Origin: Candidatus Latescibacterota bacterium
GTDB taxonomy: Bacteria; Latescibacterota; UBA2968; UBA8231
Assembly (NCBI GenBank): GCA_965208105.1
Contig: OZ242318.1
Span: forward strand, 3,680,001 to 3,744,000
Direction of reading: 5' to 3'
Length of the DNA stretch: 64,000 bases
Made by a program: the position numbers and the translations under genes. This document shows positions 3,939 through 48,133 of the stretch, one piece after another; position 1 is the first letter of the stretch, and each line of letters starts with the position of its first letter. The notes beneath the pieces were generated by a model. That model did no database searches. It was not told the origin of the DNA and was given only the letters and a program-made list of their open reading frames with translations.

Positions 3939-4305
3939 CCCCTCCTTGCCGTGTGTGGACTGCAAATCTCCGGCCTGGCCTTTCCCGTTTCGGTCGTGGA
4001 GGGCTGATACTAGGGCCGGTGGCGGCGTCCGTCAAGTAGAGCAAGCCGCGGCCGCCGGCCCATTGCGGACATCCTCTCCGGGCAGGAGGCCGAACCGACC
4101 GGGTCAGCGGCAGGGAGCCCAAACGCTTATCAGATGCGGCAAAGGATTTGAAGATTTTTATTGGCAAGGGGAAAAATTGGTGTATATTTAGGGGAGAGTT
4201 GCACTTTTGGCACCTTCCAACATTTGCCTGGAGGGGTCCGGGTAATGTCCAAAATTGTCCAGAAAACCCTTGGGAAGCGGCACCTGTTTGGCATCCAAAA
4301 AATAC

Positions 4306-4334
4306 TTGACACCCCTTACCTTTGGGAGTATATT
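4306..4334 (+). promoter_or_regulatory. Sigma70-type promoter for giant surface protein
   Basis: TTGACA-N17-TATATT in an AT-rich intergenic region. Confidence 0.7.
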
Positions 4335-4491
4335 GAAAAATCTTAATTCGCTAATAAGAGGGGAGGAGAAGCGAATTTCTATGTGTTCATCAATTAGAAG
4401 TAGCATAAAGTTCTGGCGTAAGGTTACCCAACCTAGAGTAACTTCAATTTCATCCTTAAGTCAGGGAAATCACCTGGGGAGGAATTCTACA

Positions 4492-29973: not shown

Positions 29974-30483
29974 GTGAACACCTGCGAGTTGTGCCACGAA
30001 CATCCGGCCACGGTCGTGTCGGCCCACATTGTGGGGAAGAAAAAGAACATTCTGCACCTTTGCAGCTTCTGCGCCTCCAAGCAGCACGGGGTCGAGACCA
30101 AGGGGACGAAGGTGGAGATCGTGGTCAAGAAGGGGAAGGCCAAGATCCTCGATGAGGACGGGGAGCCCTTCACCGCCCAGTGCGCCGAATGCGGAATGAC
30201 CTACGAGACCTTCAAGGAAGGAGGCCGCTTCGGCTGCCACGCCTGCTACTCCGCCTTCGAGCCGCAGCTGGACCGCCTGCTGAAGCGCATCCACGGGGCG
30301 GTCGAGCACCGCGGCAAGGGGCCGGTGCGGCGCCGGGTGCTGCCCGTTCCGGCGGAGGAGCTGGAGAGCCTGCGCGAGGAGCTCGAGGCCGCGGTGGCCG
30401 ATGAGGCTTTCGAGAAGGCGGCCGACCTCCGCGACCGGATCGTCAGGCTCCGCGGGGAAGGAACCGGGGATGCACCTGAGTGA
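29974..30483 (+). CDS. mcsA: Protein-arginine kinase activator McsA (UvrB/C motif)
   Basis: Four CxxC pairs, GRFGC..CY..F, LKRIHG, C-terminal E.FE.AA.LRD. Confidence 0.88.
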   Translation: MNTCELCHEHPATVVSAHIVGKKKNILHLCSFCASKQHGVETKGTKVEIVVKKGKAKILDEDGEPFTAQCAECGMTYETFKEGGRFGCHACYSAFEPQLDRLLKRIHGAVEHRGKGPVRRRVLPVPAEELESLREELEAAVADEAFEKAADLRDRIVRLRGEGTGDAPE

Positions 30484-31555
30484 GCTGGCCAACAATCCCG
30501 CCCACTGGTTGAGCGGTGCGGACGACGCCCGCGGCATAGTCGTCAGCTGCAGGGCGCGGCTCGCCCGCAATCTCAGCACCCGCCCCTTCGCCAGGACGGC
30601 CACCGAGGAGGACCAGGAATACGTCATCGAGCAGGTGCTCGTGGCCGCCAGGCGCAGCCGACATCTGCACAACGCCGTGTTTCTCAAGATGAACGCGCTG
30701 AACTCCGACCAGCGCCGTTTCCTGGTCGAGCGCCACCTCGTCAGTCCGGCCCTGGCGGCGGGCAAGGGGCAGCGCGGCGTGCTCTACAACCGGGACGAGT
30801 CCCTCAGCGTGATGGTCAACGAGGAGGACCACCTGCGCCTGCAGGCCATTCTGCCCGGGATGCAGGCCAGGGAGGCATGGTCGCGGATCAACGCCCTCGA
30901 TGACGAGCTGGGCGCCGGACTGGACTATGCCCACTCCGAGAGATGGGGCTATTTGACCGCCTGTCTGACCAACACCGGCACCGGGCTGCGGGCATCCGTC
31001 CTCATCCACCTTCCGGCCCTCGTCCTCACCGAGGACATGCAGAGGGTGATGCGCGGCCTGGAGAAGATGTCCTTCGCGGTGCGGGGAGTCTACGGCGAGG
31101 GCACCAATGCCACCGGCAACCTGTACCAGGTATCCAACCAGGCCACCCTGGGGAAGTCGGAGGAGGAGGTGGTCGGCGAGCTCGCCCGCCTGACCGGGCA
31201 GCTCATCGAGTACGAGAAGGAGGCACAGGAAACCCTGATGGAGTCGGCGCGTTCCCAGGTGGAGGACAAGGTCTGGCGCGCCTACGGGGTCCTTTCCCAC
31301 GCCCGCGTCCTGGGCAGCCAGGAGCTCATGAACCTGCTGTCCGCCCTGCGCCTGGGGTACAGCCTGGGAATGGTCGAGGACGTGCCCTCGAGTTTCATGA
31401 ACCACCTGATGATCGTCACCCAGCCCTCCCACCTCCACGCCGAGGCCGGCAGCATACTCGAGCCCGAGGAAAGAGACGTTCGCCGGGCGGCGTTGGTGCG
31501 CCGGCTCCTGGGGGAGTTGAAGTCCAAGGGGAAGGGGGGTAGTGGGTCGGGTTGA
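30470..31555 (+). CDS. mcsB: Protein-arginine kinase McsB
   Basis: R.RLARN, NEEDHLR, GYLTAC.TN.GTGLRASV..HLP, YQVSNQ.TLG. Confidence 0.95.
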   Translation: MHLSELANNPAHWLSGADDARGIVVSCRARLARNLSTRPFARTATEEDQEYVIEQVLVAARRSRHLHNAVFLKMNALNSDQRRFLVERHLVSPALAAGKGQRGVLYNRDESLSVMVNEEDHLRLQAILPGMQAREAWSRINALDDELGAGLDYAHSERWGYLTACLTNTGTGLRASVLIHLPALVLTEDMQRVMRGLEKMSFAVRGVYGEGTNATGNLYQVSNQATLGKSEEEVVGELARLTGQLIEYEKEAQETLMESARSQVEDKVWRAYGVLSHARVLGSQELMNLLSALRLGYSLGMVEDVPSSFMNHLMIVTQPSHLHAEAGSILEPEERDVRRAALVRRLLGELKSKGKGGSGSG

Positions 31556-31562
31556 GATTTAA

Positions 31563-31594
31563 TCTCATTCGGGTCCTGTCTCATTCGGGTCCTG
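31563..31594 (+). repeat. 16-bp tandem direct repeat TCTCATTCGGGTCCTG x2
   Basis: Read directly just after the mcsB stop. Confidence 0.85.
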
Positions 31595-31659
31595 TAATGT
31601 TTATTTTTATACTGCAACCGTTAATATTGCCAAATCCACAGGGAATAGGGAAGCATGCC

Positions 31660-33483
31660 ATGACGAGTTTGTTGAAATCGATGCTCATTGCGGTAATGAC
31701 CTTGGTCATTACCTCATGCGCAGACAGTCCCACCATGCCAAAGGGTAGCCCCAGTCCTGGCAATGGGATAAAGGTTGTAACTGCGGAAGGAAGGCCAATA
31801 TCCAAAGCAGAGGGATACTTGCTCAATAAAAAAGACTGGTCCATGCAGAAGGTGTCCACCAACGCCAAGGGCCGCCTCAAGATAGATCAACCTCTTGCCC
31901 AGGGCAATTATTGGCTAGGCATCTTGGTCGAAGGCGAGGTCTTGGTCGACACCAACGTTGCGAGCGGCCAGGAGACAGCGGTCGTGCATCCCATGAAGCT
32001 GCCGTCGTCCAAGCCAGCCCAAAATGACGATGCCCTGATTCGCGGGGATGTAGATGGGAACGGAGAAGTGAATCAAACCGATGTCATTGCCTTCTTCCTG
32101 AAACTTATCACGGGGCAGACGTTCAGCCTGCAGGCCAACATCAATGGCGACGAGAGTACCGACTGGATTGATCTGGCGCTGTTGGGAGCCTATGTGTATG
32201 GCGGTCCGGACGCCGAAAATCCCTGGAACATCGGTCAGCCCATCGGCGATCCTCCTACGCAGCCGCCTACGCCTCCTCCAACACCTCCACCCACTCCACC
32301 TCCCACACCGCCGCCAGACCCCTACCGCGATGGAAGCTCGATAGAACGGGCGATCATCGTGCCGGATCCCAACTACGTTTTCCAAGGGGAGCAGTTGGAA
32401 GCCGGGCAGCAGATCTTCTATCGAGTGGACGTTCCCTCTACCGGGCGCCTGGTCGTCCACTCCGCGGGAAGCACCGATACCTACGGGACACTCATTTACA
32501 GAAGCAACCGGGTGGATCGAAACGACGACGGCGGCTCGGGCAGAAACTTTCTGATGGATGTTTCCACCTATACCGGACCGCACTACGTCGCTGTAAGGGG
32601 GTATAGCAATGTGGTCAGCGGCGCCTACGACCTCAACGTGGAATTCTTTCCATTCACCTCCGACCAGGCCTTCAACATCGAGCTCCGCTATGTGGCCCGG
32701 TTTTCTGCTGAGGAAAAAGCGGAATTCCAGCGCGCCGCCTCCCATTGGGAGAGAATAATTCAGGCCGACGCGGAGGACATCTATTATTTCTCTGGGAACC
32801 CTACGACGCTCTCCATAGAATGGTTCGGCTCCGACGTAACGATAGATGGCGTTATCGATGATCTGCTGGTTTTCGTGAACTGAGGCACGATAAACGGCGG
32901 GGCGGCGTCCTCAGACCAGGGAATTTTCCGTGAAGATGAGAGCGGATTGCCTTTTTTGGGACTGGTCATGATGGGGGAGGTCGTCCTGGAGTCGGAGGAC
33001 CTGGCGGATGGAACCACCTACGACATATTCCTCCATGAATTAGCTCACACTATGGGCTTCGGATTGATGTGGGACCGCGGGAATTTACTGGCCAATCCGT
33101 CTTCTCGTTTGGCCGGCCGCGACACCCACTTCCGCGGATTCAATGCCGTGAGGGCGTTCGACCAGTCGGGCGGAGAGGACTATATCGGGGGGAAAGTGCC
33201 CGTGGAAAACAGCGCCGAGGCTCCCGGCCCCGGCAGCCGGGACCTCCATTGGAGAGAGTCTGTCTTTGGGGGCGAGGTAATGACCTGGATTCATCGGGGA
33301 GTGCGAGCCCCCCTGAGCAACATCACCCTGCAGTCCTTGTTCGATCTGGGCTATCTGGTGGACGCAAGCCTGGCCGATCCCTATGTGATTCCTGAAACCC
33401 CTGCATTGTCAGCCGGTGATTTTGACCCCGACAGACTCCAATGCACCCTTCACGGCCCGATTTTGATGCCGGGGGGACATTAA
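31660..33483 (+). pseudogene. Lipoprotein with dockerin, Pro/Thr linker, PPC domain and leishmanolysin-like (M8) Zn protease; interrupted by in-frame TGA at 32881-32883
   Basis: Lipobox ITSC; GDVDGNGEV / ANINGD dockerin pair; PPT repeat; PPC DTYG...NDD...NF; FNIELRY...AA..WE.II; HELAHTMG, SRDLHWRE, EVM. ORFs 31552-32883 and 32947-33483 are in the same frame. Confidence 0.75.
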
Positions 33484-33836
33484 GAGGGCACCACTCCTGT
33501 AACCTTGACAATTATAATGTGAAGATGAGAGCTGCCTTTGTAATCACATTGGCGTCTTCGGCAAGATTCCTGCCGGGTCAACTCCAGCCCCTTTTCTGAC
33601 AGGAAAAATAAATACAATAACTGTCAGGCGAAATCGAGCTTGTTTTAAATCACTCTACTTGGACTTGATCAAGGGGGCAAGGTCAGCCTCCGGGGCCAAG
33701 AAGCCATCCTGTCAACGAGAAGTAGGCTGGAAGTTATCCACTGGGATGGGCCCCACATGGCCCTGGTTCAAATTCAGAGGGTGATACCCCTCGTGGGGAC
33801 AGGTCATAATCCGAGGGAAGGGACGGGAAGTGCTCG

Positions 33837-36203
33837 TCAGGATTCTGTTTTCTCACCCAGGCGATACCCGACGCGGGGCTCGGTGAAAAGAAAGGTTGGG
33901 TTGGCGGCGTCGTCTCCCAGCTTGCGGCGGAGGTTTTTTACGGCGGCGCGCACCACCCGTGGATCGATGCTGCCCGGCCCCCAGACCGTTTGCAGCAATT
34001 GTTCGTGGGTTACTACCCATCCGGGGTGAACAGATAGCTCCGCCAACAGGCGATACTCGATGTCGGTCAATCGCACACGCTGCCCGGCCACCGTCACACA
34101 GCGTCCGGCGTAGTCGATGGTCAACTCTCCCAGCACATAGGGTTCCGTGGGATCTGTAATGCCGGATGCCGCCCGTTTGCGCAGAGTCGCCCGCATCCGG
34201 GCGGCCAGTTCCGTCTGTGAGAAGGGTTTGACCATGTAGTCGGCTGCCCCCGCATCGAAGGCCCGGGCGATCACCTCGTCCTGGCCATAGGCGGACAGGA
34301 AGATGACGGGCGCATTCGAGGTCTCGGAAAGGTCTTTCATCAGGTCTATCCCGTCGACGCCGGGCAGCACCAGATCCAGCAACACCAGGTGGGGATGGTG
34401 CTTCTCCATGAGGTGGGGCACATCCTTGGGGTCGGCGGTCACGATGGGAACATAGCCTGATTTGCGAAGGGCATCCCGTATGGTGCGCAGCGCCTGCGGG
34501 TCGTCGTCCACCACCAGGATGGGGGTTCGGTTCCGCTTCGTCGTCGCCCTGCGAGCAGTCCGAGGGAGATCTGAGGCGAGGGCATTCCCCTCCTCCTCGG
34601 CCAGGGGAAGGGTGAAGCTAACAAGAGTACCCTTACCCACGCCCTCGCTTTCCGCCCAAATGCGGCCTCCATGGGCCTCGACAATGCCCTTGCAGATGGC
34701 CAGGCCAAGGCCCCGCCCCTCCTCGCCACAGTCTTGGTCCGGTTCCACTCGCCGGGAAAACTTGCGGAAAAGGTGCGACAGGCGCTCGGCCGACACGCCT
34801 CGGCCCTGGTCGCCCACCGAGACGGCCACGTGGTCCCCCTCCCATACCGCGGCTATGCGGATTATGGTCGACTCGGGCGAGTGCCGGGCCGCGTTGCCCA
34901 GGAGGTTGCCGAGGACCTGCACGAGGCGCCGACGGTCCGCCATCACTCGAGGAAGATCCGGCGCCATCTCGATCTGCAGCGGATGCCGGTTCCCGCCACT
35001 CGAAAAGACCTTTCGGGCTTCGTCCACCAGATCGCCCACGGATTCCGGTTCGGGATGAATCAGCAGGGTGCCCGTTTCGATGCGGGCCACGTCCAGCAGG
35101 TCGTGGATCAGGCCCGTCATTCGGTCGGCCTGCTGATTGATGATGCGAAAGAACGGGATCGTCTCGGCCGGGCTCAGGTCGGTCGAGTTTCCCAGCACGG
35201 TGACGGCAGCGCCCTTGACAGCCGCCAGCGGGGTCCGCAGCTCGTGGCTGACCATGGCCAGAAACTCCGCCCGCAGCCGCTCCAGGTCTTCCAGGTGCGC
35301 CATGTCCTGCACGGTGACGACAAAGGACTCCAAGTCTCCATCCTCCGAGCGGATGGGGGTGGCGTTGACGAGGACGGTCATTTCGCGGCCGTCGGGGCCT
35401 TGGAGAAGGACCTCCTCGGTGCTCACCGCCTCCCCTGCTCTCAGAATATTGGATATGGGGTTTGTTCTCAAGGAGGTCTCCCTGCCGTCCTCCCGGCGGA
35501 TGTTCAGGACTTTCAACAGGGCCTCGACAGTCTGCCCTGGGGCGCGCAGGTACTCAAAGATCCGGAGCGCCTCCTTGTTGGTAGACCGAGGCAGGTCCTT
35601 CCCCCCATCGAAGACGACCACACCCACGGGGGAGATGTCGATCAGGGTCTCCAGGTCGGCCCGGGCCCTCTGCTCGTCCCGGTGTCTGCGGGCATTGGCG
35701 ATGACCAGCGCCGCCTGGGAGGCGAACATGGTCAGGATCTCCTCGTCTTCTTTTGTGAACGCCCTACCGGTCTCCTTGTTGGCAAGATAGATGTTGCCCC
35801 TGCACTCGTCTTGGTGGCGCAAGGGAGCGGCCAGGAAACAACTTACCTCCATGGGGGGCCGGAAGTCAGGGATACCCAGCATTCGGGTGTAGCGGGCAAA
35901 GTCCTTGACCCTCCGAGGGCTTGAAATGTTGCAAAAGTGCTCCCCTGGGGTCGTCTCCCATAATTTCTCGGCCTCCTGGTCCGACATGCCGGAGGCAATT
36001 AAGCCATCAACTTTCCCGGAATCGTCCAAGGTGGCAATCACGCCGTAGCGGGCGTCGGTCAGCGACCGGGCGCTGTCCAGGACCCCCTGCAACACCGTCT
36101 GCAGATCAAGGCTTTCGTTGATGCGCAGGCTCGCCTGGCTCAATCGCGACAGGCGTTGCCGAAGGGTCTTGATCTCTCGTGCCGTTGCCTCGGTTGGATG
36201 CAT
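33837..36203 (-). CDS. Hybrid sensor kinase-response regulator fusion (GAF-PAS-HisKA-HATPase-REC-winged helix)
   Basis: SHELRTPL, N-box NLLGNA, DQGRGV, GLGLAI; VVDDD...LLDLVLPG...KPF; LTDIEYRLL...TEPRVGYRL. Confidence 0.92.
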   Translation of the reverse strand: MHPTEATAREIKTLRQRLSRLSQASLRINESLDLQTVLQGVLDSARSLTDARYGVIATLDDSGKVDGLIASGMSDQEAEKLWETTPGEHFCNISSPRRVKDFARYTRMLGIPDFRPPMEVSCFLAAPLRHQDECRGNIYLANKETGRAFTKEDEEILTMFASQAALVIANARRHRDEQRARADLETLIDISPVGVVVFDGGKDLPRSTNKEALRIFEYLRAPGQTVEALLKVLNIRREDGRETSLRTNPISNILRAGEAVSTEEVLLQGPDGREMTVLVNATPIRSEDGDLESFVVTVQDMAHLEDLERLRAEFLAMVSHELRTPLAAVKGAAVTVLGNSTDLSPAETIPFFRIINQQADRMTGLIHDLLDVARIETGTLLIHPEPESVGDLVDEARKVFSSGGNRHPLQIEMAPDLPRVMADRRRLVQVLGNLLGNAARHSPESTIIRIAAVWEGDHVAVSVGDQGRGVSAERLSHLFRKFSRRVEPDQDCGEEGRGLGLAICKGIVEAHGGRIWAESEGVGKGTLVSFTLPLAEEEGNALASDLPRTARRATTKRNRTPILVVDDDPQALRTIRDALRKSGYVPIVTADPKDVPHLMEKHHPHLVLLDLVLPGVDGIDLMKDLSETSNAPVIFLSAYGQDEVIARAFDAGAADYMVKPFSQTELAARMRATLRKRAASGITDPTEPYVLGELTIDYAGRCVTVAGQRVRLTDIEYRLLAELSVHPGWVVTHEQLLQTVWGPGSIDPRVVRAAVKNLRRKLGDDAANPTFLFTEPRVGYRLGEKTES

Positions 36204-36392
36204 GTCGCCCTCCTAAGGGGGTGATATGGCACTCCTCTATGTCTTCAAGAAATGCGCTTGGGAGCGGACCCATCCCCATATTTTCATAAAAAAATCATTA
36301 TAAGTCAAGGGATTTATCACGTATTCCTCATAAACGGATAGTATATTCCAAAAATTGTTTCTTCCGGATGAAGATCTTCAAAGGGAGTGAGC

Positions 36393-37720
36393 ATGATGAA
36401 GCGAATAATCGGTGTTCTCATGGTTCTGTGCTTGGCGCCCGGGATGCAGGCAGGAGCCGAGCCGCTGGTGGAGGGCCGGGTGCGGCTGGCCTCGGGCGAG
36501 CCGGCCGTCGGCGCCTCTGTGCGGCTCTTCGATTTGGCCGATTTGCGTAAGTGGGTCGGCGCCACCACCGATGAGGCGGGCTATTTCGCCCTGCCGTTGC
36601 GGGCCTTGCCGGGGGCGGCGGCCCTGCCGGAGCGCTTCGCGCTGGGGCCGAACTATCCCAATCCGTTCAACCCTTCCACCCTGATTCCCTACCAACTGCC
36701 GCTGGCGACCCACGTGCGGCTGGAGGTATTCAACGTCCTGGGGCAGCGGGTGGCGACGGTGGTGGACGGGGAGCAGTCGGCGGGTTTTCACACGGCGCGT
36801 TGGGACGCCACCGATGCGGCGGGTCGGGCGGCGGCGGCCGGGGTCTATCTCTACCGGCTGCAAGCCGGCGGGGAGAGCATAACCCGGCGCATGGTGTTGA
36901 TTGACGGGCAGGCCGGCCTGCCAAGGGCGTCGTCGGGCGGCTGGGCGCCGGCGGAGGCAGGCCCCCCGGAAACGGGCATCCCGGTCTATGGCTTGACCGT
37001 CTCCGGTGAAGGGCTGGTCCCCTACGTGGACCCGGGCTTCGGCCTGGAGGCTGGCAGGGGGCCGGTGGACCTGGTGGTCGAGGCCCGGGCTGACGGCCCG
37101 CCGGCGAAGGTGGCCACCGAGGGGACGGGCGGGATCCTGGGCGACGTCAACAACGACGGCCAGGTCACCATGGCCGACGCGCTGGTGGTGGTGATCCACC
37201 ATCTCGATGCAACGCTTGCCGCCCCCAACAACGGCGATATTTCGCTGGGCGACGTCAACGCAGACGGCCGCATCGATCTGACCGACGCGCTGCTCATCAT
37301 GACCTACAGCGTCAATCCGAACGATCCGACCTTGCCGGAGGGGATCGGGGGTCCGGTCGCGGAGGAGAGCCCTGCTCCGGATGGTGATTTGCGCTACCCG
37401 GAGGCGACGCCGGTCGCTGCCAACAGTCAGACGGCGGGTATGCTGGCGGGTGGGGAGACCGACTATTATCGCGTCACCCTCAGCGGCCCCGGCACCCTGG
37501 TGGCCTACACCACCGGCGGCACGGATACCTACGGGTACCTGGAGGATAACGCCGGCACGGTGCGGGACCAAAACGACGATGCGGTCAGGGGCAACCGCAA
37601 CTTCCGCGTATCGGCGGTCGTTACGGCCGGCACCTACTACGTCCGGGTCCGCGGTTTTGTTGCGTCCATCACCGGCGCCTATACCCTGCACGTAGAGTTC
37701 GAGCCGGGGGAAACGGTCGC
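36393..37720 (+). repeat. 1328-bp direct repeat copy 1 (copy 2 at 40087-41414)
   Basis: Colinear without indels (offset 3694); about a dozen substitutions by eye, clustered 5'. Confidence 0.95.
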
Positions 37721-39431
37721 CTCCGACGATCGGGCGGCGCTGGTGGCGTTCTACGAGGCGACCGGCGGGGCTGACTGGGCCGATAGCCGCGGCTGGCTCA
37801 GCACCGCGCCCTTGGGCCAATGGCACGGCGTCGACACGGACACCGACGGCCGCGTTACTCATCTGATCCTCCGTGGTAACCAGTTGAGTGGAGCGATCCC
37901 GGTGGAGTTGGGCCAACTGACCAACTTGCAAGGGCTGAATCTCTCTGGTAACCAGTTGAGTGGAGCGATCCCGGTGGAGTTGGGTCAACTGACCAACTTG
38001 CAGTGGCTGTACCTCGAGGGTAACCAGTTGAGTGGAGCGATCCCGGTGGAGTTGGGTCAACTGACCAACTTGCAGTGGCTGTTCCTCGAGGGTAACCAGT
38101 TGAGTGGAGCGATCCCGGTGGAGTTGGGCCAACTGACCAACTTGCAAGGGCTGAATCTCTCTGGTAACCAGTTGAGTGGAGCGATCCCGGTGGAGTTGGG
38201 TCAACTGACCAACTTGCAGAGGCTGTACCTTGATGGTAACCAGTTGAGTGGAGCGATCCCGGTGGAGTTGGGTCAACTGACCAACTTGCAGGGGCTGTGG
38301 CTCTCTGGTAACCAGTTGAGTGGAGCGATCCCGGTGGAGTTGGGTCAACTGACCAACTTGCAACAGCTGTTTCTCTCTGGTAACCAGTTGAGTGGGTGCA
38401 TACCCGAGGGTTTGCGAGCGGTAGAGGACCATGACCTGGACCAGCTTGGGCTATCGCTGTGCACCACCACGCCCTCCCCTGATCGGGCGGCGCTGGTGGC
38501 GCTCTACGAGGCGGCCGGCGGCGCTGACTGGGCTGATAACGGCGGCTGGCTCAGCGACGCGCCCCTCGGCCAATGGCACGGCGTCGGCACGAACACCGCC
38601 GGTCGCGTTACTCATCTGCGCCTCTCTGGTAACCAGTTGAGTGGAGCGATACCGGTGGAGTTGGGTCAACTAACCAACTTGCAACAGCTATTCCTCTATG
38701 GTAACCAGTTGAGTGGAGAGATCCCGGTGGAGTTGGGTCAACTGACCAACTTGGAATGGCTGTATCTCTCTGGTAACCAGTTGAGTGGAGAGATCCCGGT
38801 GGAGTTGGGTCAACTGACCAACTTGCAGGGGCTGAATCTCTCTGGTAACCAGTTGAGTGGAGAGATCCCGGTGGAGTTGGGTCAACTGACCAACTTGCAA
38901 CAGCTGTTCCTCTCTGGTAACCAGTTGAGTGGAGCGATCCCGGTGGAGTTGGGTCAACTGACCAACTTGCAGGGGCTGAATCTCTCTGGTAACCAGTTGA
39001 GTGGAGAGATCCCGGTGGAGTTGGGTCAACTGACCAACTTGCAACAGCTGTTCCTCTCTGGTAACCAGTTGAGTGGGTGCATACCCGAGGGTTTGCGAGC
39101 GGTAGAGGACCATGACCTGGACCAGCTTGGGCTATCGCCGTGCACCGCCATTGATCCACCGCCGCCGACGGGCGACGCCTGTTTCGTCGGGCAGGAGTTG
39201 AGTCCTGGGCAGAGTTGCACCGTCGATATTCCCAATCTCCACGTCGGCAGCAATCGGTTCGAGGTACGCTCCGGTGGGTCTGGATGTTACGGCAGTATCT
39301 GCGCGGGCACGAGTATGGATCTCAATGGGTTTCAAGCCAGCAAAATTGCGGGCACGTCACGGTGGCTCATCGAAGCACTGCCCAGTACCGCCGGCCAGGC
39401 GAGTGCGAAGGTCTCCGCGGCAGGCTCCTGA
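36393..39431 (+). CDS. Secreted modular protein: FlgD-Ig, dockerin, PPC, two capped plant-type LRR arrays, Cys-rich C-terminal module
   Basis: Signal peptide; NYPNPFNP; GDVNNDG/GDVNADG; LxxLxLxGNQLSG.IP.ELGQLTN repeats; DRAALVA.Y...W...W.GV N-caps; GCIP C-caps. Confidence 0.9.
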   Translation: MMKRIIGVLMVLCLAPGMQAGAEPLVEGRVRLASGEPAVGASVRLFDLADLRKWVGATTDEAGYFALPLRALPGAAALPERFALGPNYPNPFNPSTLIPYQLPLATHVRLEVFNVLGQRVATVVDGEQSAGFHTARWDATDAAGRAAAAGVYLYRLQAGGESITRRMVLIDGQAGLPRASSGGWAPAEAGPPETGIPVYGLTVSGEGLVPYVDPGFGLEAGRGPVDLVVEARADGPPAKVATEGTGGILGDVNNDGQVTMADALVVVIHHLDATLAAPNNGDISLGDVNADGRIDLTDALLIMTYSVNPNDPTLPEGIGGPVAEESPAPDGDLRYPEATPVAANSQTAGMLAGGETDYYRVTLSGPGTLVAYTTGGTDTYGYLEDNAGTVRDQNDDAVRGNRNFRVSAVVTAGTYYVRVRGFVASITGAYTLHVEFEPGETVASDDRAALVAFYEATGGADWADSRGWLSTAPLGQWHGVDTDTDGRVTHLILRGNQLSGAIPVELGQLTNLQGLNLSGNQLSGAIPVELGQLTNLQWLYLEGNQLSGAIPVELGQLTNLQWLFLEGNQLSGAIPVELGQLTNLQGLNLSGNQLSGAIPVELGQLTNLQRLYLDGNQLSGAIPVELGQLTNLQGLWLSGNQLSGAIPVELGQLTNLQQLFLSGNQLSGCIPEGLRAVEDHDLDQLGLSLCTTTPSPDRAALVALYEAAGGADWADNGGWLSDAPLGQWHGVGTNTAGRVTHLRLSGNQLSGAIPVELGQLTNLQQLFLYGNQLSGEIPVELGQLTNLEWLYLSGNQLSGEIPVELGQLTNLQGLNLSGNQLSGEIPVELGQLTNLQQLFLSGNQLSGAIPVELGQLTNLQGLNLSGNQLSGEIPVELGQLTNLQQLFLSGNQLSGCIPEGLRAVEDHDLDQLGLSPCTAIDPPPPTGDACFVGQELSPGQSCTVDIPNLHVGSNRFEVRSGGSGCYGSICAGTSMDLNGFQASKIAGTSRWLIEALPSTAGQASAKVSAAGS
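37875..38378 (+). repeat. Seven tandem 72-bp LRR units
   Basis: GGTAACCAGTTGAGTGGAGCGATCCCGGTGGAGTTGGG... recurring at exact 72-bp period. Confidence 0.95.
38628..39059 (+). repeat. Six tandem 72-bp LRR units
   Basis: Same unit at exact 72-bp period. Confidence 0.95.
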
Positions 39432-39471
39432 CGGCCGCTGGCTGCGGCGGCTGGCACCGCAGTCGGAGTAG

Positions 39472-39627
39472 TTGTACGGCGTCGGCACGAACACCGACGG
39501 TCGCGTTGACTATTTGAACCTCTCTGGTAACCAGTTGAGTGGGTGCATACCCGAGGGTTTGCGAGCGGTAGAAGACCATGACCTGGACCAGCTTGGGCTA
39601 TCGCCGTGCACCACCACGACCCCGTAG
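39472..39627 (+). pseudogene. Orphan LRR module with N-cap fused directly to C-cap (no internal repeats)
   Basis: Translates LYGVGTNTDGRVDYLNLSGNQLSGCIPEGLRAVEDHDLDQLGLSPCTTTTP*; near-identical DNA to the caps in the upstream gene; flanked by stops. Confidence 0.85.
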
Positions 39628-40086
39628 GGAACGGCACCGACCGTATGATCTTGTAGTTGCCATGAGGAACGGCTGTTGTGGCTGGTTGAAGAGTCGCCGC
39701 CGACCCGGCGGGCCAAGGGTCGGCGCGCCGCCTTGACCGGGTCCCCGAGGCCCCTTCGAGGTAGTCGACGTAGAACCCCCATGTCCCTATCCATGGCCCC
39801 CAAAGAGCCATCCTGCGCCTGGGATATCACCTCAAGCACACAACAGGGGCCGGGATAATGGGGAGAGTTGCGCCCTCACCTGGTTCGAGCTCCCTACCAC
39901 CGATCCGCAGACGCCCAGGGAGAGGTACACCCTGGGGTTGCTCCGTCGGGGATTGCTTTCACCCACACCCTTCGGAAAATAGGAAGGGGCTTCGTGCTGC
40001 CATCACTTTGCAGAAATCTCAGGACTGGCCCCGGTCAGTACAGTGCCATGACGAATCAAGGCTGACCCCATATATAAGGAGTAAGC

Positions 40087-43000
40087 ATGATGAGGCGAAT
40101 AATCGGCGTTCTCATGGTTCTGTGCTTGGTATCCGGGATGCAGGCAGGGGCCGAGCCCCTGGTGGAGGGCCGGGTGCGGCTGGCCTCGGGCGAGCCGGCC
40201 GTCGGCGCCTCTGTGCGGCTCTTCGATTTGGCCGATTTGCGTAAATGGGTCGGCGCCACCACCGATGAGGCGGGCTATTTCGCCCTGCCGTTGCGGGCCT
40301 TGCCGGGGGCGGCGGCCCTGCCGGAGCGCTTCGCGCTGGGGCCGAACTATCCCAATCCGTTCAACCCTTCCACCCTGATTCCCTACCAACTGCCGGTGGC
40401 GACCCACGTGCGGCTGGAGGTATTCAACGTCTTGGGGCAGCGGGTGGCGACGGTGGTGGACGGGGAGCAGTCGGCGGGTTTTCACACGGCGCGTTGGGAC
40501 GCCACCGATGCGGCGGGGCGGGCGGCGGCGGCCGGGGTCTATCTCTACCGGCTGCAAGCCGGCGGGGAGAGCATAACCCGGCGCATGGTGTTGATTGACG
40601 GGCAGGCCGGCCTGCCAAGGGCGTCGTCGGGCGGCTGGGCGCCGGCGGAGGCAGGCCCCCCGGAGACGGGCATCCCGGTCTATGGCTTGACCGTCTCCGG
40701 TGAAGGGCTGGTCCCCTACGTGGACCCGGGCTTCGGCCTGGAGGCTGGCAGGGGGCCGGTGGACCTGGTGGTCGAGGCCCGGGCTGACGGCCCGCCGGCG
40801 AAGGTGGCCACCGAGGGGACGGGCGGGATCCTGGGCGACGTCAACAACGACGGCCAGGTCACCATGGCCGACGCGCTGGTGGTGGTGATCCACCATCTCG
40901 ATGCAACGCTTGCCGCCCCCAACAACGGCGATATTTCGCTGGGCGACGTCAACGCAGACGGCCGCATCGATCTGACCGACGCGCTGCTCATCATGACCTA
41001 CAGCGTCAATCCGAACGATCCGACCTTGCCGGAGGGGATCGGGGGTCCGGTCGCGGAGGAGAGCCCTGCTCCGGATGGTGATTTGCGCTACCCGGAGGCG
41101 ACGCCGGTCGCTGCCAACAGTCAGACGGCGGGTATGCTGGCGGGTGGGGAGACCGACTATTATCGCGTCACCCTCAGCGGCCCCGGCACCCTGGTGGCCT
41201 ACACCACCGGCGGCACGGATACCTACGGGTACCTGGAGGATAACGCCGGCACGGTGCGGGACCAAAACGACGATGCGGTCAGGGGCAACCGCAACTTCCG
41301 CGTATCGGCGGTCGTTACGGCCGGCACCTACTACGTCCGGGTCCGCGGTTTTGTTGCGTCCATCACCGGCGCCTATACCCTGCACGTAGAGTTCGAGCCG
41401 GGGGAAACGGTCGCTTCGCTGTCGCCCGACCCTTCGACGGCGACGTTTACCGACGACGGGGCCTGGCACCGGTTCACGGTGCAGGCCGGCGAGGCGGTGT
41501 CGGTGGTGGCCAACCCGGAGGGGACCACCCCGCGCCTGAAGATCACCACCCGCAGCGTCGGGAGCAACTTCTGCCCGGCTGAAGCCGAAGACGACGTCTC
41601 GCGCCGGGACGGCCAGGCCGTCTACCTAGCCGGGTGCGCCACCGGCACGGCCACGGTAGAGCTGCAGCGGCGATCCGACGGCACGGTCCTGAACACCTAC
41701 ACCTTCGAGGTGACCGGCAGCCCGGCGGACCTCATTGTGGAGTCGGTCTCGGTCAGCGACAACACCCTGACGCCGGGGCAATCCTTCACGCTGAGCGCTA
41801 CCGTGCGCAACCAGGGCACGGGCCGGTCGGCGGCGACCACGCTGCGCTGGTACCTCTCGTCAGACACGAGAATCACCACGCAGGATACGGAAGTAGGCAC
41901 CGACCCAGTGACCGCCTTGGGGGGTTCCCGTACCAGTGCCAAGTCGATCCGCCTGACCGCGCCGTCGAGCGAAGGCACCTGGTACTACGGAGCCTGCGTG
42001 GTCAGCGTCACGGGCGAAAGCGTCGGGAACAACTGCTCCCTTGGTGTAAGGGTGATCGTCAAGGAGTACGACAGGGAGGAGATTCTCGTCTTTACTGACC
42101 CACAGATATACAACGACAACGTGTTTGTCTTGCCCGTTACAGAGAACCTCGCCGCCGGCAGTTTGCCACTGAAGGACTACGCGGCGCGTTTCTACGAGAA
42201 CTTCGACGATGCCTTCGATTTCCTGATAATCGTCACCAATTTGCCCGAAGCAGAGAGACCAGTCAGCTATATCGGCAGATATTTGCATGTGAAGAACGAT
42301 GTACAAGGGATTGGTCTATCGATTTTTTCTGACAATAGTAATTGGGGGTCGGCGGGAAAACTCCAAGGTGTGATCGATTTTCCGATCTATTCGACATATT
42401 ACAAGCTCGGACGCTCGGTCTTGTTCGAGGGGCCGACCTTGCACGAACTGATGCATCGGTGGGCAAACTTCATCGTGCCACCATACGAAGCGGCTATTGG
42501 CGCTCATTGGGGATTCACCAGCGTCAACGGTATACTTGGCGGGTTTGATATCGCCAATCTGGTGGACCATGGCGGCGGCCAGTACACCGCCGGAGACATT
42601 GGTGTCAACTTTAATACTGTTGGATGGGGCAACACACGACCATACAGCCCTATCGAGTTGTACTTGGCAGGTCTCATACCCCCAGAGGAGGTCCCTGACT
42701 TCTTGGTTGCAGAGGAGGGACAGTGGCTGCGCGGCGCGGACGGTCTAATCATAGAGGCCGGCAATGGGGAGCCGATATTTACCGCAAGTCGGCTCAAGAC
42801 CTATACGATAGAGGACATCATCGCCGAGCATGGACGACGCGATCCCGACCATTCGCAAGCGCAGAAGGATTTTCGCGCGGCAGTCATTCTGCTGATCGAT
42901 AAGGACCACTTGCCGACCCGAGGTATCCTAGAGACGCTGAGCGACGATATATCCTGGTTCAGTCATGTGGGCAATGTTGGAATCCGCTGGAACGATCGCT

Positions 43001-43155
43001 ATCAAGCATACAATTTCTACGAAGCAACCGGTGGCAGAGGCACAATCACCATGGACGAGCTGTCACATTTCCAACGCCGCGGGGGGAGTGCAAAAAGGCT
43101 TGCGCCGAGTTCGTTCGGAACGCCCCCACCGCCCATCGTGGATCATTGGGATTGA
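40087..43155 (+). CDS. Secreted modular protein: FlgD-Ig, dockerin, PPC, CARDB-like, HExxH Zn-metalloprotease
   Basis: Same N-terminal ~443 aa as the 36393 gene; ADLIV...LSATVRNQG CARDB-like; LHELMHRW...AHWG. Confidence 0.88.
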   Translation: MMRRIIGVLMVLCLVSGMQAGAEPLVEGRVRLASGEPAVGASVRLFDLADLRKWVGATTDEAGYFALPLRALPGAAALPERFALGPNYPNPFNPSTLIPYQLPVATHVRLEVFNVLGQRVATVVDGEQSAGFHTARWDATDAAGRAAAAGVYLYRLQAGGESITRRMVLIDGQAGLPRASSGGWAPAEAGPPETGIPVYGLTVSGEGLVPYVDPGFGLEAGRGPVDLVVEARADGPPAKVATEGTGGILGDVNNDGQVTMADALVVVIHHLDATLAAPNNGDISLGDVNADGRIDLTDALLIMTYSVNPNDPTLPEGIGGPVAEESPAPDGDLRYPEATPVAANSQTAGMLAGGETDYYRVTLSGPGTLVAYTTGGTDTYGYLEDNAGTVRDQNDDAVRGNRNFRVSAVVTAGTYYVRVRGFVASITGAYTLHVEFEPGETVASLSPDPSTATFTDDGAWHRFTVQAGEAVSVVANPEGTTPRLKITTRSVGSNFCPAEAEDDVSRRDGQAVYLAGCATGTATVELQRRSDGTVLNTYTFEVTGSPADLIVESVSVSDNTLTPGQSFTLSATVRNQGTGRSAATTLRWYLSSDTRITTQDTEVGTDPVTALGGSRTSAKSIRLTAPSSEGTWYYGACVVSVTGESVGNNCSLGVRVIVKEYDREEILVFTDPQIYNDNVFVLPVTENLAAGSLPLKDYAARFYENFDDAFDFLIIVTNLPEAERPVSYIGRYLHVKNDVQGIGLSIFSDNSNWGSAGKLQGVIDFPIYSTYYKLGRSVLFEGPTLHELMHRWANFIVPPYEAAIGAHWGFTSVNGILGGFDIANLVDHGGGQYTAGDIGVNFNTVGWGNTRPYSPIELYLAGLIPPEEVPDFLVAEEGQWLRGADGLIIEAGNGEPIFTASRLKTYTIEDIIAEHGRRDPDHSQAQKDFRAAVILLIDKDHLPTRGILETLSDDISWFSHVGNVGIRWNDRYQAYNFYEATGGRGTITMDELSHFQRRGGSAKRLAPSSFGTPPPPIVDHWD

Positions 43156-43384
43156 CCGCGAGAATCTGGACGGAAGGCTGAGGGGGTATTGTGACTGAAT
43201 TGGCTAATAATCATGGCCGTTGGAGGATCAGGCTGAGCAGCTACGATCAGAAACAGTAGGGGTCTTTGTGTACCGGCTGGTGACGAGCGAAGCCGTGCAG
43301 ACACGCGAGCTTACCGTGCTGCGGTAGTGCGGCTCCCATGAGGACGCCGGAACAAGGAGAAAGCCCCACCCACGTCCGCAGACG

Positions 43385-43790
43385 CGAACATGTAGCCCGG
43401 CGCTGGATGTCGGTGATTACGGAAGACCTGCCGGACTATGAATTCACTCAGGGCTGGTCGGGTACGTGCAACGGTCAGTCGTTTGAAAATCTCCGCCGGG
43501 GAGTGGATGGACGACCTGCGGATCTATTCGGGTCGCACTGGAGGACTCCCGTACTCGATGGGGAAGTCATGTTGTCGTACGGGGGAGGGGGGCGCGCTGA
43601 GCTCGATCACGGTTCAGTCCCTGGCCGACCTGGGCTACGGCGTCGATGGCTCTCAAGCTGACCCATATACCCTACCCGGTGCCGGAGCTTTTGTGCGGAG
43701 CCGGTCTCCAGCGGGGGCCGATTCACGTGGTCGACCCGCAGGGGCGCATCGTCCGTACCCTGGGCGACTGAAAGGTATGGCAGGGCGCCA
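43385..43790 (+). pseudogene. Degenerate leishmanolysin-like (M8) cassette with frameshifts and deletion of the HExxH core
   Basis: Fragments ARRWMSVITEDLPD, DDLRIY, SHWR.PVL.GEVM and LSSITVQSLADLGY.VD..QADPY.LP lie in shifting frames and parallel the 31660 protein's WERII..DDLLVF..HWRE..EVM..LSNITLQSL.DLGY.VD..ADPY. Confidence 0.7.
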
Positions 43791-44458
43791 ATGAATTCGC
43801 GGAATAGGAGGTCAGCCGCGCCTTAGTGATTCTGCCTGAGCCAGTCCAGCAGGCGGCCCAATTGTCCCACCAAGTAAAGCGGCAGCGAGAGCAAGGTCAT
43901 TTCCACGCTCTGTCGCGTCCCGCTCACCTGGTGCTGGATGGAGTTGCTGGGTGAGCAAACGGGTTGTAAAGAATGCCAAGGAAGCTATGTAGCGGTATTC
44001 GCAGCCCTGGCCGAACGCGATCCAAATGTAGGCGTTCCCTCGGTCGGGGAAGCCCAAGATGAGATCCTGACTGAATTCGATCTTCGCGACCTCACACGTG
44101 GTCTCCAAACGAATTCGAGGATGGGCGTCAGGCGCGTCAGCTCATCGCGGAATGGTTTCGGTATTACAACAAAGATCGGCCTCTTTCCAGCCTGGCGGGG
44201 AACCGGACGCCGATGGAGGCCTGCACAGGTCGCCAAGGGGCATGAACGCGGGAGAAACGAGGTGAAACCTTGGCCAAGGCCGGGTGGTCTATCCCCTCAA
44301 CCAGCAAAATGACCATCCTGCCAAGTCGGAAAGGAGACCTCAGAGAAATCCAGAAAAAGCAGGACAGGGCAGCAAATCAACCAAAATGAATCCACCTGGA
44401 TCATGCTGCCAAGCTGTCCAAAGAACGGGGGTCCGCCTCAAAAAGTGGGTCAAGGCTG

Positions 44459-44944
44459 TTATTTTTTCGGGCGGACATACCAGCCAAGGCACCGTTCGAT
44501 TTGAGGATCATACACAACCCCGTATTCCATTTGCTGCCATTCTCCCAATCCATTTTGGAACTTGATCTTATTGCCATAATATTTCAATTTGCCCAATCTC
44601 TTGTCTCCCCACACGAACTTTGGAAACCTGGATTCGTACCAGGCGTCAGTCCATTTGTGGTCGTAATCGGCATAGGATTCTACTATATCGCTGCACTGAA
44701 CATTTACGGCCCTTGAGTGCTTATCTCCCCAGCATTGCAGGTCCTGGCGGCAATTCTGATCCTCAGTCCTTGCTTTCTCCGCCTCTGTTAAATTGGGCTC
44801 AATGGCCTGGAAGTTTTTTAGAGTAGGTCGAACCTTCGAAGCACGTGGTGGGGGCTCTTCGTTGTCTCCTACCATTATTTCGATAGTGCACATTCCCATT
44901 AAAAGGCAGAGCACGGCTCCTACGACCATTAAAAATCCGCCCAT
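44459..44944 (-). CDS. Hypothetical membrane-anchored protein, lower GC
   Basis: Strong RBS AGGAGG, N-terminal hydrophobic segment, 161-aa ORF. Confidence 0.6.
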   Translation of the reverse strand: MGGFLMVVGAVLCLLMGMCTIEIMVGDNEEPPPRASKVRPTLKNFQAIEPNLTEAEKARTEDQNCRQDLQCWGDKHSRAVNVQCSDIVESYADYDHKWTDAWYESRFPKFVWGDKRLGKLKYYGNKIKFQNGLGEWQQMEYGVVYDPQIERCLGWYVRPKK

Positions 44945-44993
44945 ATTGATTTCCTCCTATTTGGTGTCTCCCTTTGTCGAAATTGGCGATCAC

Positions 44994-45526
44994 CTAGTCG
45001 TGCGCAATCAGATGGCGCCCCTCGGCATGGTCGCAGAACCAACCCGCCTCCTCGATCATCTCCCCGCTATGGCTGACCAGGGTGTTGTCGATGGCGATCA
45101 CCCCCTGCGCTGAATAGCGCCTCGAGGAATGACCCTGCAACCAGGCCAAACGATGTTCGTTGAGTTGTTCCACATCCCACGGCACCTGAGTAATCCAGAG
45201 GTTCAGGCAGGATGGATCCGTGGTCTGGGCAAACTCGGCGTTGATCGCCGAAACGTTCTTGCGCTCGGCTACCATCAGCCCGGTCAGATATTCGGCAAAG
45301 TGCCAGCGCTCCGGGGTGTCGGCGAACATCCAGCCGAACTCGTCCACGGCTTGCTCGGCGATCGTAGGAAAGGCAATAATACCTGGCGTGAACCCCTCTT
45401 ACAGCGTCAGGGGACGGGCAAGGCGGGGGAGGCCCTGCCTGGCAAATATACTCATGCGGGCGGTATTTCTGCTACCGAAAATCTGGACTCATCGGCAGAA
45501 AAAACTCATTTTGCAAAAGTCCAAAG
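44994..45526 (-). mobile_element. Truncated IS701-like DDE transposase remnant
   Basis: HFAEYLTGL...RKNV...W...GVIAIDNT is typical of IS701-family N-termini; apparent start degraded (ACG-CCA-GGT) and frame truncated; left end approximate. Confidence 0.65.
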
Positions 45527-45542
45527 GGAAGGGCGGCGCCGG

Positions 45543-45571
45543 TTGACAGGTAATTTCACATTCCATAGGTT
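45543..45571 (+). promoter_or_regulatory. Sigma70-type promoter upstream of clpC
   Basis: TTGACA-N17-TAGGTT. Confidence 0.55.
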
Positions 45572-45661
45572 CAAAATCCGGAGGGACTGCTTGGTCTCTC
45601 CGGGTCGGTTTTCAACTCACGGGTCCTGCGTTCGGGGGCGGCTCTCAGGAGGAATTTCCGG

Positions 45662-48133
<2,472 letters not shown>

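Follow-up and report, generated by a model that had tools for sequence, protein, structure and literature searches.

A conserved N-terminal leader on varied eukaryote-like proteins and a putative recombinant gene pair in a Latescibacterota genomic island

How do two neighbouring genes come to share an almost identical 5′ part and then encode unrelated proteins? This question is raised by a 64,000-nucleotide stretch of contig OZ242318.1 from a Candidatus Latescibacterota bacterium (hereafter, the window), in which the two genes, here called geneB and geneC, follow a third gene, geneA. An initial annotation of the window had described the three as a constant front of export signal, dockerin and PPC domain carrying swappable C-terminal payloads, and had likened them to Rhs and contact-dependent inhibition (CDI) loci. 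The genome of the window (G000, with C1 its contig) is one 4.85-Mb contig with 61.6% GC and a marker completeness of 93.9%; G001 is a relative of the same genus, and other G numbers denote further relatives. Judging from the sequence comparisons described below, we think it likely that the gene pair reflects evolutionary domain shuffling and concerted evolution, with no programmed switch, and that a large lineage-specific gene family is represented in the window by a small and partly decayed sample. The main interest lies in the lineage-wide N-terminal leader of this family rather than in the window's gene pair.

The shared block and the history of geneC

The two copies of the shared block (Table 1), offset by 3694 positions, are identical at 1324 of 1337 positions (99%). 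This bears out the earlier description of two genes that are near-identical over 1328 bp and switch at 37720/41414. The block starts at a Shine-Dalgarno box, 5′ of which the DNA of geneB and geneC is unrelated, and it ends in the linker after the PPC domain, following ...HVEFEPGETVAS; beyond it, the 3′ parts of the two genes have no detectable mutual similarity. All 13 differences between the copies lie within the first 588 bp, while the remaining 749 bp (36972-37720) are fully identical. An even spread of the 13 differences would leave none in the last 749 bp with a probability of (588/1337)^13, about 2e-5. A blastn search of the whole genome with the block, as had been suggested, recovered the two known copies and no third.

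Scans with Pfam and NCBIfam placed in the block a signal peptide, a CarboxypepD_reg domain (below cut-off), a domain resembling FlgD_ig and the sorting domain of the type IX secretion system (T9SS), Dockerin_1 at aa 250-307 and PPC at aa 356-423. In both geneB and geneC, the FlgD_ig/Por_Secre_tail-like match in Pfam spans aa 88-170; TIGR04183 scored 43.3 and 44.6 bits in the two block copies against a cut-off of 23, and FlgD_ig scored 38.5 bits. Dockerin_1 scored 34.7 and 35.8 bits (cut-off 22.9), and this segment contains an internal 63-nt repeat, D6, with conserved D/N/G columns. Thus, signal, dockerin and PPC are all present as first annotated, and the block additionally holds an N-proximal T9SS type-A sorting-like domain. 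In an AlphaFold2 model of the first 330 residues (pLDDT 69.8), two beta-sandwiches are followed by a disordered linker (172-195), after which come a small beta domain (198-229) and a helical dockerin. The best PDB resemblances of the model include PorZ, the RgpB C-terminal domain (CTD), PorU and FlgD (Foldseek E 2e-4 to 7e-4).

Comparison with the same-genus relative revealed what the two genes may have been before they came to share the block. G001 carries a tandem pair, t1/t2 (locus L015, G001:C1:4855000-4873000), with the order N-Ig-CARDB-LRR (Ig, immunoglobulin-like; LRR, leucine-rich repeat), to which t2 adds an M8-like end. By blastn, the island that holds geneB and geneC matches this locus from leader to dockerin at about 74% nt identity and again over Ig-CARDB from 41412 at 76-78%. 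The point at which homology resumes matches the point, 41414, where geneB and geneC part. Further downstream, 43395-43942 matches the M8 3′ end and the DNA past the t2 stop codon at 73-83%. Because of this pattern of homology, from which the PPC is missing, we take geneC to be the positional orthologue of t2, with a PPC added and the LRR-M8 tail replaced. The N-PPC-LRR architecture of geneB occurs also in P0154 and P0155, at 75-80% identity. A gene beside t1/t2 in G001 has its G000 orthologue at 537212-538276, far from the island, so the t1/t2-type cluster has moved in one of the two genomes.

Phylogenies of different parts of these proteins disagree. In a tree of the small beta domain plus dockerin (23 rows), geneB and geneC form a clade with P0154 and P0155 (support 100/99, branch 0.42), and the 19 other leaders stand apart. 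In a tree of Ig-CARDB (18 rows), geneC is instead placed among P0160, P0163, P0177, P0203/5 and others, with 72-82% identity. The dockerin segments of these CARDB neighbours (P0160, P0163, P0177, P0203/5) belong to the other clade of the dockerin tree and are 61-63% identical to that of geneC. Since the two trees disagree, geneC appears to be a recombinant that joins the leader of one lineage to the body of another. P0155, in turn, is a mosaic of two leader types: its aa 1-75 are 88% like G001 t1, and its dockerin is 92% like that of P0154; G001 t1 and P0154 are 52-58% identical to each other in the regions compared. In G001, G010 and G016, too, pairs of paralogues have 5′ blocks in common, at 86-96% identity, and the block of the G001 pair (91% over 1554 nt) ends after CARDB. 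The reassortment of leaders and payloads by recombination, as initially proposed, is therefore supported by the incongruent placement of geneC and by the P0155 mosaic.

We hypothesize that geneB is of the N-PPC-LRR type and that geneC derives from an N-Ig-CARDB-LRR-M8 ancestor shared by position with t2. The 5′ part of geneC, from the ribosome-binding site through the dockerin, would have been overwritten by the leader and PPC of geneB, and its LRR-M8 tail would have been swapped for a lower-GC HExxH domain, with the M8 3′ end surviving as a relic. A further, conversion-like event would have homogenised the last 749 bp of the shared block. Our model suggests that the conserved leader provides the homology that lets paralogues recombine, and that selection keeps those in-frame junctions that fall at domain linkers.

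The leader family and its predicted role at the surface

The leader, of about 330 residues, opens with a Sec signal peptide, which is followed by two beta-sandwiches, the first CarboxypepD_reg-like and the second T9SS type-A sorting-like; a flexible linker then leads to a small beta domain and a two-segment dockerin. Many open reading frames (ORFs) of relatives, which range from 360 to 4134 aa, begin with a counterpart of its first 325 residues at 43-67% identity. Among 21 leader-bearing ORFs from six relatives, Pfam found FlgD_ig in 20, Dockerin_1 in 17, Ldl_recept_b (YWTD) in 15, CARDB in six and LRR in six. Cadherin, fn3 and Peptidase_M8 occurred three times each, together in three giants of ~3800-4130 aa, and FGE-sulfatase and PPC once each. 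A search with leader residues 172-330, which covered proteins of 562-1789 aa, returned 671 protein clusters at E<=1e-10. We tallied by hand the payloads of the 118 clusters listed out of these 671, and counted CARDB in 71, YWTD in 43, LRR in 22, ankyrin in 16, fn3 in nine, propeller/WD40 in nine, cadherin in eight, PPC in seven, M8 in two and VWA in one. The few source-given names of homologues are of the kind 'T9SS type A sorting domain-containing protein [Gemmatimonadaceae bacterium]', or refer to Gemmatimonadota.

Of 132 genomes of the class, 42 contain the leader segment, and a single genome has up to 14 matches. By family, and excluding G000, it is present in 39 of 75 genomes of f1, 1 of 31 of f2, 0 of 3 of f3 and 1 of 22 of f4; G000 itself, with two matches, stands at the low end of the per-genome range. 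A wider profile scan of genome contigs with the leader alignment returned 79 loci from many phyla of the Fibrobacterota-Chlorobiota-Bacteroidota (FCB) type, all of which match only residues ~30-190, that is, the sorting-like domain. These loci are uninformative on the range of the leader, and we used them as a control set for domain position. The early idea of a constant N-terminal module on varied payloads thus extends well past the window, to 671 clusters and 42 of 132 genomes, and the eukaryote-like character of the payloads (LRR, ankyrin, cadherin, fn3, YWTD) stands as well.

In the window, the payloads assigned at the outset, LRR for the gene at 36393 and CARDB plus an HExxH domain for the gene at 40087, were recovered through Pfam matches to LRR and CARDB and through the motif HELMH. 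The LRR part of geneB contains 13 copies of a 72-nt unit, encoding 24-residue LRRs, in two arrays; the gene begins MMKRII, and the ORF as listed starts six bases 5′ of this, at GTG. The HExxH domain of geneC had no match in Pfam, NCBIfam or PDB sequences and none to a toxin family, and the Atlas returned unnamed clusters only (0.87-0.89). It belongs to a large unnamed family of 2893 representative clusters at E<=0.001, in which it is usually C-terminal. Across 25 sequences of the family, H151, W153, H168 and E218 are invariant and H147/E148 nearly so. The AlphaFold2 model of the domain (pLDDT 79.9, pTM 0.82) had no Foldseek match at E<=0.001. We considered a metzincin fold and rejected it as an assignment: the best VIA-align Z was 4.0, and adamalysin, ADAMs, fragilysin and leishmanolysin gave Z 2.8-3.4, values too weak to name the fold. 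The distribution of the domain is patchy (6 of 40 relatives, with the best matches in other families), and its partners there are LRR, cadherin-fn3-LRR or dockerin-LRR, or it is followed by a normal C-terminal sorting domain. GC fractions are 0.686 for the leader, 0.587 for the LRR part and 0.535 for the HExxH domain, with 0.616 for the genome.

The genome encodes parts of a T9SS, namely PorU (NF033707, 632 bits, cut-off 420) and SprA (TIGR04189, 603.8 bits summed, cut-off 200), and Pfam Secretin gave no match in this single-contig genome. We located 47 sorting-domain matches in G000. A stop codon follows within 25 codons in 39 of them and three more are truncated matches near a stop, so that 42 of 47 are effectively C-terminal; the other five, in geneB, geneC and three proteins of ~700 aa without a dockerin, are N-proximal. 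After the domain, geneB continues for 841 codons and geneC for 851, far from the extreme C-terminal position. At the 79 control loci of other phyla, 95 of 98 matches are C-terminal by the same measure (stop within 25 codons). The N-proximal placement is thus unusual, yet recurrent, as five proteins of G000 have it. The sorting-like domain of the leader is 36-53% identical to C-terminal sorting domains of G000, and the pair of CarboxypepD_reg and sorting domain recurs in this genome, where its three best matches (C1:848123-848647, 3117205-3117681 and 3938308-3938751) are N-proximal too. The three ~700-aa proteins (C1:846518-849364, 3115549-3117816 and 3936697-3938928, all on the minus strand) start with a signal, a CarboxypepD_reg-like domain and the sorting-like domain, and continue for ~550 residues without a Pfam family.

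For the dockerin, a candidate partner is a protein at C1:4082158-4084767 (minus strand) in which a signal and LTD precede Cohesin (24.2-26.8 bits, cut-off 24.1) and a FlgD_ig sorting domain forms the C-terminus. Full-length orthologues of this protein are present in 9 of 41 genomes, including six of the seven in which a search of relatives had recovered leader genes; this co-occurrence is weak, because kin are not independent. Pfam Cohesin misses G001, which has five leader genes and an orthologue of the G000 cohesin protein at 77% identity. In total, one cohesin of G000 reaches the Pfam cut-off and a second match is weak, and we saw no multi-cohesin scaffoldin. The weak match (E 0.07) lies at 12124-12324 of the window, just before the C-terminal T9SS sorting domain of a 2837-aa protein (4255-12768, plus strand) that also carries fn3_6. 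At least 13 cohesin matches in relatives, identified by eye, stand immediately 5′ of a sorting domain and share its frame (for example, G018:C1:4072027-4072755, G007:C14:139440-140078 and G023:C25:15100-15756), and a cohesin beside a surface anchor seems to be a common architecture in the class. A co-fold of dockerin and cohesin (cohesin, 5 rows; leader residues 236-325, 14 rows; 2 Ca) scored 0.04 and 0.08 against a mark of 0.32, in a run without controls, and weighs neither for nor against docking.

From these observations, we propose that the proteins are exported by Sec and then passed to, or retained at, the surface through the leader. The dockerin would dock to cohesins that neighbour the T9SS anchors on other surface proteins, the T9SS-like domain would act, or both, and the displayed binding arrays and peptidase-like domains would bind or cut components of the host or the matrix. 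Such an arrangement would depart from the systems it resembles. T9SS type-A cargo shares the domain family, by hidden Markov models, and the fold resemblance to the PorZ, RgpB and PorU CTDs, with T9SS parts encoded in the same genome; here, in contrast, the domain occupies residues 88-168 of ~1020, behind the signal peptide, and not the C-terminal position that defines such cargo. Dockerins usually form a C-terminal tag. Cellulosomal and non-cellulosomal dockerin proteins likewise combine a two-segment Ca-binding dockerin with interchangeable modules, and cohesin-bearing surface proteins are present in the same genome as the leader. In contrast to them, the dockerin here lies within an N-terminal leader, the payloads are LRR, CARDB, YWTD, ankyrin, cadherin and peptidase-like domains, with no carbohydrate-active catalytic domain among the listed payload families, and binding is predicted in a genome in which no multi-cohesin scaffoldin was seen.

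A stronger version of this proposal would make the leader a genuine signal for export and anchoring, whose N-proximal T9SS type-A domain directs passage across the outer membrane while the dockerin tethers the protein to cohesin-bearing cargo. The TIGR04183 scores above cut-off, the similarity to the C-terminal sorting domains of G000, the presence of PorU and SprA with no secretin found, and the lack of a C-terminal sorting domain on the leader proteins would all suit it, as would the three further G000 genes with the same N-proximal arrangement (without dockerin) and the conservation of the arrangement in hundreds of proteins. To our knowledge, however, all characterised T9SS signals are C-terminal, as the domain is nearly everywhere else in our controls, and a beta-sandwich can be a mere spacer. 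We regard this version as unlikely.

Fragments, junctions and alternative explanations

The genes lie in an island inserted between mcsB and clpC (Table 1). The order mcsA-mcsB-clpC-bamA is uninterrupted in all five relatives examined, G001 included, and it is in G000 that the island parts mcsB from clpC. Besides the three genes, the island contains an opposite-strand hybrid kinase-regulator, which lies between geneA and geneB and is a possible local regulator, the relics described below and a transposase fragment. A search of the island flanks for direct or inverted repeats of at least 10 nt found none. Just 3′ of mcsB (~31563-31595), a 16-nt unit, CTCATTCGGGTCCTGT, stands twice in tandem; an X6 contig lacks 16 nt there.

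Table 1 Coordinates of the island, its genes and their parts in the window
Feature	Position	Strand	Content or basis
Island, 14.1-kb insertion	31556..45661	.	Between mcsB (30401-31555) and clpC (45662-48133); flanking genes named by Pfam
geneA	31660..33483 (ATG 31660)	+	Lipoprotein-type signal, CarboxypepD_reg-like, dockerin, PT linker, PPC-like, M8-like HELAH
Hybrid sensor kinase-response regulator	33837..36203	-	Pfam: GAF, PAS, HisKA, HATPase_c, REC, Trans_reg_C (OmpR-type DNA-binding)
Shared block, copy 1	36384..37720	+	Ribosome-binding site and geneB codons 1-443 (leader, PPC)
geneB	36393..39431	+	Leader, PPC, two LRR arrays (37721-39155), 92-aa Cys-containing tail
Decayed further LRR module	39440..39621	+	N-cap with stop codon; first LRR fused to last LRR and C-cap
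Shared block, copy 2	40078..41414	+	Ribosome-binding site, leader and PPC of geneC
geneC	40087..43155	+	Leader, PPC, Ig-like domain, CARDB, unnamed HExxH domain
N-proximal T9SS type-A sorting-like / FlgD_ig domain, aa 88-168	40348..40590 (geneC); 36654..36896 (geneB)	+	TIGR04183, FlgD_ig
Dockerin, two Ca-loop/helix segments	40831..41001 (geneC); 37137..37307 (geneB)	+	Dockerin_1, internal repeat, invariant columns
PPC-coding segment, 360 bp	41052..41411	+	Missing from G001 t1/t2; blastn homology ends at 41051 and resumes at 41412
Ig-CARDB body	41412..42073	+	Orthologous to G001 t1/t2, 76-78% nt identity
HExxH domain (HELMH), geneC aa 640-1022, ~380 aa	42004..43152	+	GC 0.535; no named family
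Relic of M8-like 3′ end and downstream flank of a t2-like gene	43371..43942	+	Frameshifted, internal deletions
DDE_5-type transposase, N-terminal fragment	44997..45398	-	Right end of island; Pfam E 1.9e-5, 24.8 bits, cut-off 27

geneA had been counted as a third gene of the common design. It does have a signal, a dockerin (Dockerin_1 21.8 bits, just below the cut-off of 22.9), a PPC-like stretch ending NVEF and an M8-like domain. It lacks the FlgD_ig/sorting-like domain, is 27% identical to the block over dockerin-PPC, and its frame is interrupted by an in-frame TGA (32881-32883) before running on to 33483. The TGA is also present in a 2669-nt X10 contig (record 9) without base differences. 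PF01457 gave no direct match to geneA; its HELAH domain is 36-40% identical (E 1e-35 to 1e-46) to the C-termini of giant proteins of relatives, which match PF01457 at 32-37 bits. We considered recoding of the TGA and found no support for it: a second M8-like match 'with 1 TGA' (C1:3142347-3143072) proved to be an intact small lipoprotein, the TGA being its own stop. This M8-like lipoprotein (313-aa frame) forms a second small cluster, C1:3142350-3145960 (minus strand), with a lipoprotein that carries a dockerin, a geneC-like Ig domain and YWTD.

Payload fragments do lie behind the intact genes, as first noted, at 39476-39621 (LRR, ~150 bp) and 43371-43768 (M8, ~400 bp). Between them, they contain stop codons, frameshifts and internal deletions. 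The LRR fragment is 91-98% identical to parts of geneB's own LRR modules. The M8 fragment aligns to M8-like C-termini in three frames and, being only ~50% identical to geneA, is not a copy of it. With blastn and tblastn, we found no constant block next to either fragment, and both match 3′ parts of payloads only. Pfam and NCBIfam scans of geneB and geneC detected no toxin, immunity, Rhs/YD or VENN-type family. No immunity gene was found 3′ of the variable ends, where the ORFs at 39215-39517, 43338-43661 and 43438-43794 match no family and run across the relics in different frames. G001 t1 is likewise trailed by pieces of an M8 3′ end. From their sequence, both apparent orphans are best explained as decayed parts of longer ancestral genes, left after truncation or tail replacement.

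Population data came from the listed Logan contigs, short and of low depth, of four runs from four studies; as these are contigs only, rare junction variants are not visible in them. Island-specific pieces occur in all four runs at 99-100% identity. The runs of two of the studies are labelled sponge metagenome and coral reef metagenome, and the bacterium is probably sponge- or reef-associated. Wherever the contigs cover them, the junctions are those of the window: X10 record 13 (40159-42687) and X5 record 21 (41372-41773) span the 41414 junction, and the X6 contig carries the mcsB-island junction, with one copy fewer of the 16-nt tandem repeat. At 37720, which no listed contig spans, X5 and X6 contigs end at 37677-37686, as expected at a repeat fork. 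We found no well-supported alternative junction among the listed contigs of the four runs. In one X10 contig (depth 3.4), the PPC regions of the shared block (at 41240) and of geneA (at 32521) are joined, with 25 unmatched letters between them; it may represent another paralogue or a mis-join. X5 has loose ends, in single contigs, at 41381 and 42142.

Several other histories could be imagined for the pair. Plain tandem duplication, with the 3′ halves diverging and no exchange between paralogues, would agree with the position of geneB and geneC, 3.7 kb apart on the same strand, and with the frequent clustering of the family (t1/t2 as a tandem pair, G010 with three genes in 47 kb, and G016 with two genes separated by 11 kb). 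We find it highly improbable, given that the dockerin-segment and Ig-CARDB trees conflict, with support, that the block differences are very unevenly spread, that 3′ parts without detectable similarity follow 5′ parts of 99% identity, and that the PPC is missing from the orthologous G001 genes. To the idea that the duplicated block is an assembly artefact we give almost no credence: the stops of the X5 and X6 short-read contigs near the fork, which could be cited for it, show only that the block is repeated there too, and the genome is a single contig, the copies differ at 13 positions, the 41414 junction is spanned by X10 and X5 contigs, and the geneB-type junction, from PPC to the LRR N-cap, occurs independently in P0154 and P0155.

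The remaining alternative is the one suggested initially, namely a dedicated Rhs/CDI-like toolkit in which silent orphan cassettes are swapped onto a constant N-terminus and vary the display within populations. The locus resembles Rhs/CDI loci in its conserved N-terminal and variable C-terminal parts, in its displaced 3′ remnants and in a conserved part that evidently serves as recombination homology. The sharp switch after a constant 5′ block, the payload-type fragments immediately 3′ of both genes and the low-depth X10 joint all point in this direction, as do the displaced 3′ ends behind G001 t1: in Rhs loci, old C-terminal tips are displaced, and the t1 relic resembles this. However, a store of orphan cassettes does not agree with fragments that are short, decayed and devoid of any constant block as a homology handle, nor with an LRR piece that is geneB's own payload type and offers no alternative. 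In addition, geneB and geneC hold no toxin, immunity, Rhs/YD or VENN-type family, the genome has two block copies only, and the listed contigs of four runs from four studies match the junctions of the window where they cover them. As the fragments carry no constant block and neither toxin nor immunity content was seen, the defining features of Rhs/CDI loci are missing; unlike those loci, this one has no toxin domain, immunity gene or delimiting motif, and its exchanges appear to be rare, evolutionary events. We therefore judge such a toolkit very unlikely. What does apply, on an evolutionary time scale, is an Rhs-like logic in which a conserved front acts as recombination homology and displaced ends remain downstream.

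Domain shuffling within a leader family, which we prefer, also has points that weigh against it. The right-hand junction of the shared block, where PPC meets Ig-CARDB, lacks homology on the side of geneB, so at least one illegitimate joint is needed there. The probable direction, from geneB to geneC, rests on the missing PPC in G001 t1/t2 and on N-PPC-LRR proteins elsewhere. The island appears run-down, with a broken geneA, relics and a transposase fragment, and the genome might be in the course of losing geneB and geneC. For the predicted function, the sorting-like domain lies at the wrong end of the protein by the standard of the control loci. Pfam Cohesin matches 39 of 41 genomes of the class; as it is general in the class, cohesin presence is not specific to leader-bearing genomes. 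Surface export and display through the leader, by docking to cohesin or by the T9SS, are predictions from sequence, and the habitat is deduced from run labels and short, low-depth contigs.

Implications for sponge-associated lineages

Eukaryote-like proteins of sponge symbionts comprise the same domain classes as the leader proteins (ankyrin, LRR, cadherin, fn3, WD40, YWTD/NHL), and DNA of the island is present in runs labelled sponge and coral reef. According to one report, such proteins are enriched in sponge-associated genomes, Gemmatimonadota are among the sponge metagenome-assembled genomes, the export route of symbiont eukaryote-like proteins is unknown, and few sponge genomes encode classical secretion systems (PMC8163846). 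Here, many of these classes share one conserved N-terminal leader; a literature search at abstract level found no account of eukaryote-like symbiont proteins that have a dockerin or T9SS-like leader in common.

It is conceivable, if on balance doubtful, that the ~330-residue leader serves a sponge-associated lineage as a device dedicated to the export and display of eukaryote-like proteins, with type IX passage from the 'wrong' end, a dockerin that inserts into cohesins beside T9SS cargo anchors, and payloads reassorted by recombination within the shared leader. If the leader is only a spacer, the finding shrinks to an ordinary expanded family of modular surface proteins. In either case, the leader is a defined sequence element that can be deleted, fused to reporters or used as bait, and the locus would offer, in geneC, a clean natural example of a conserved leader serving as recombination homology. 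If the device were real, it would provide a first concrete, testable route by which ankyrin, LRR, cadherin and YWTD proteins of sponge symbionts become exposed to the host.

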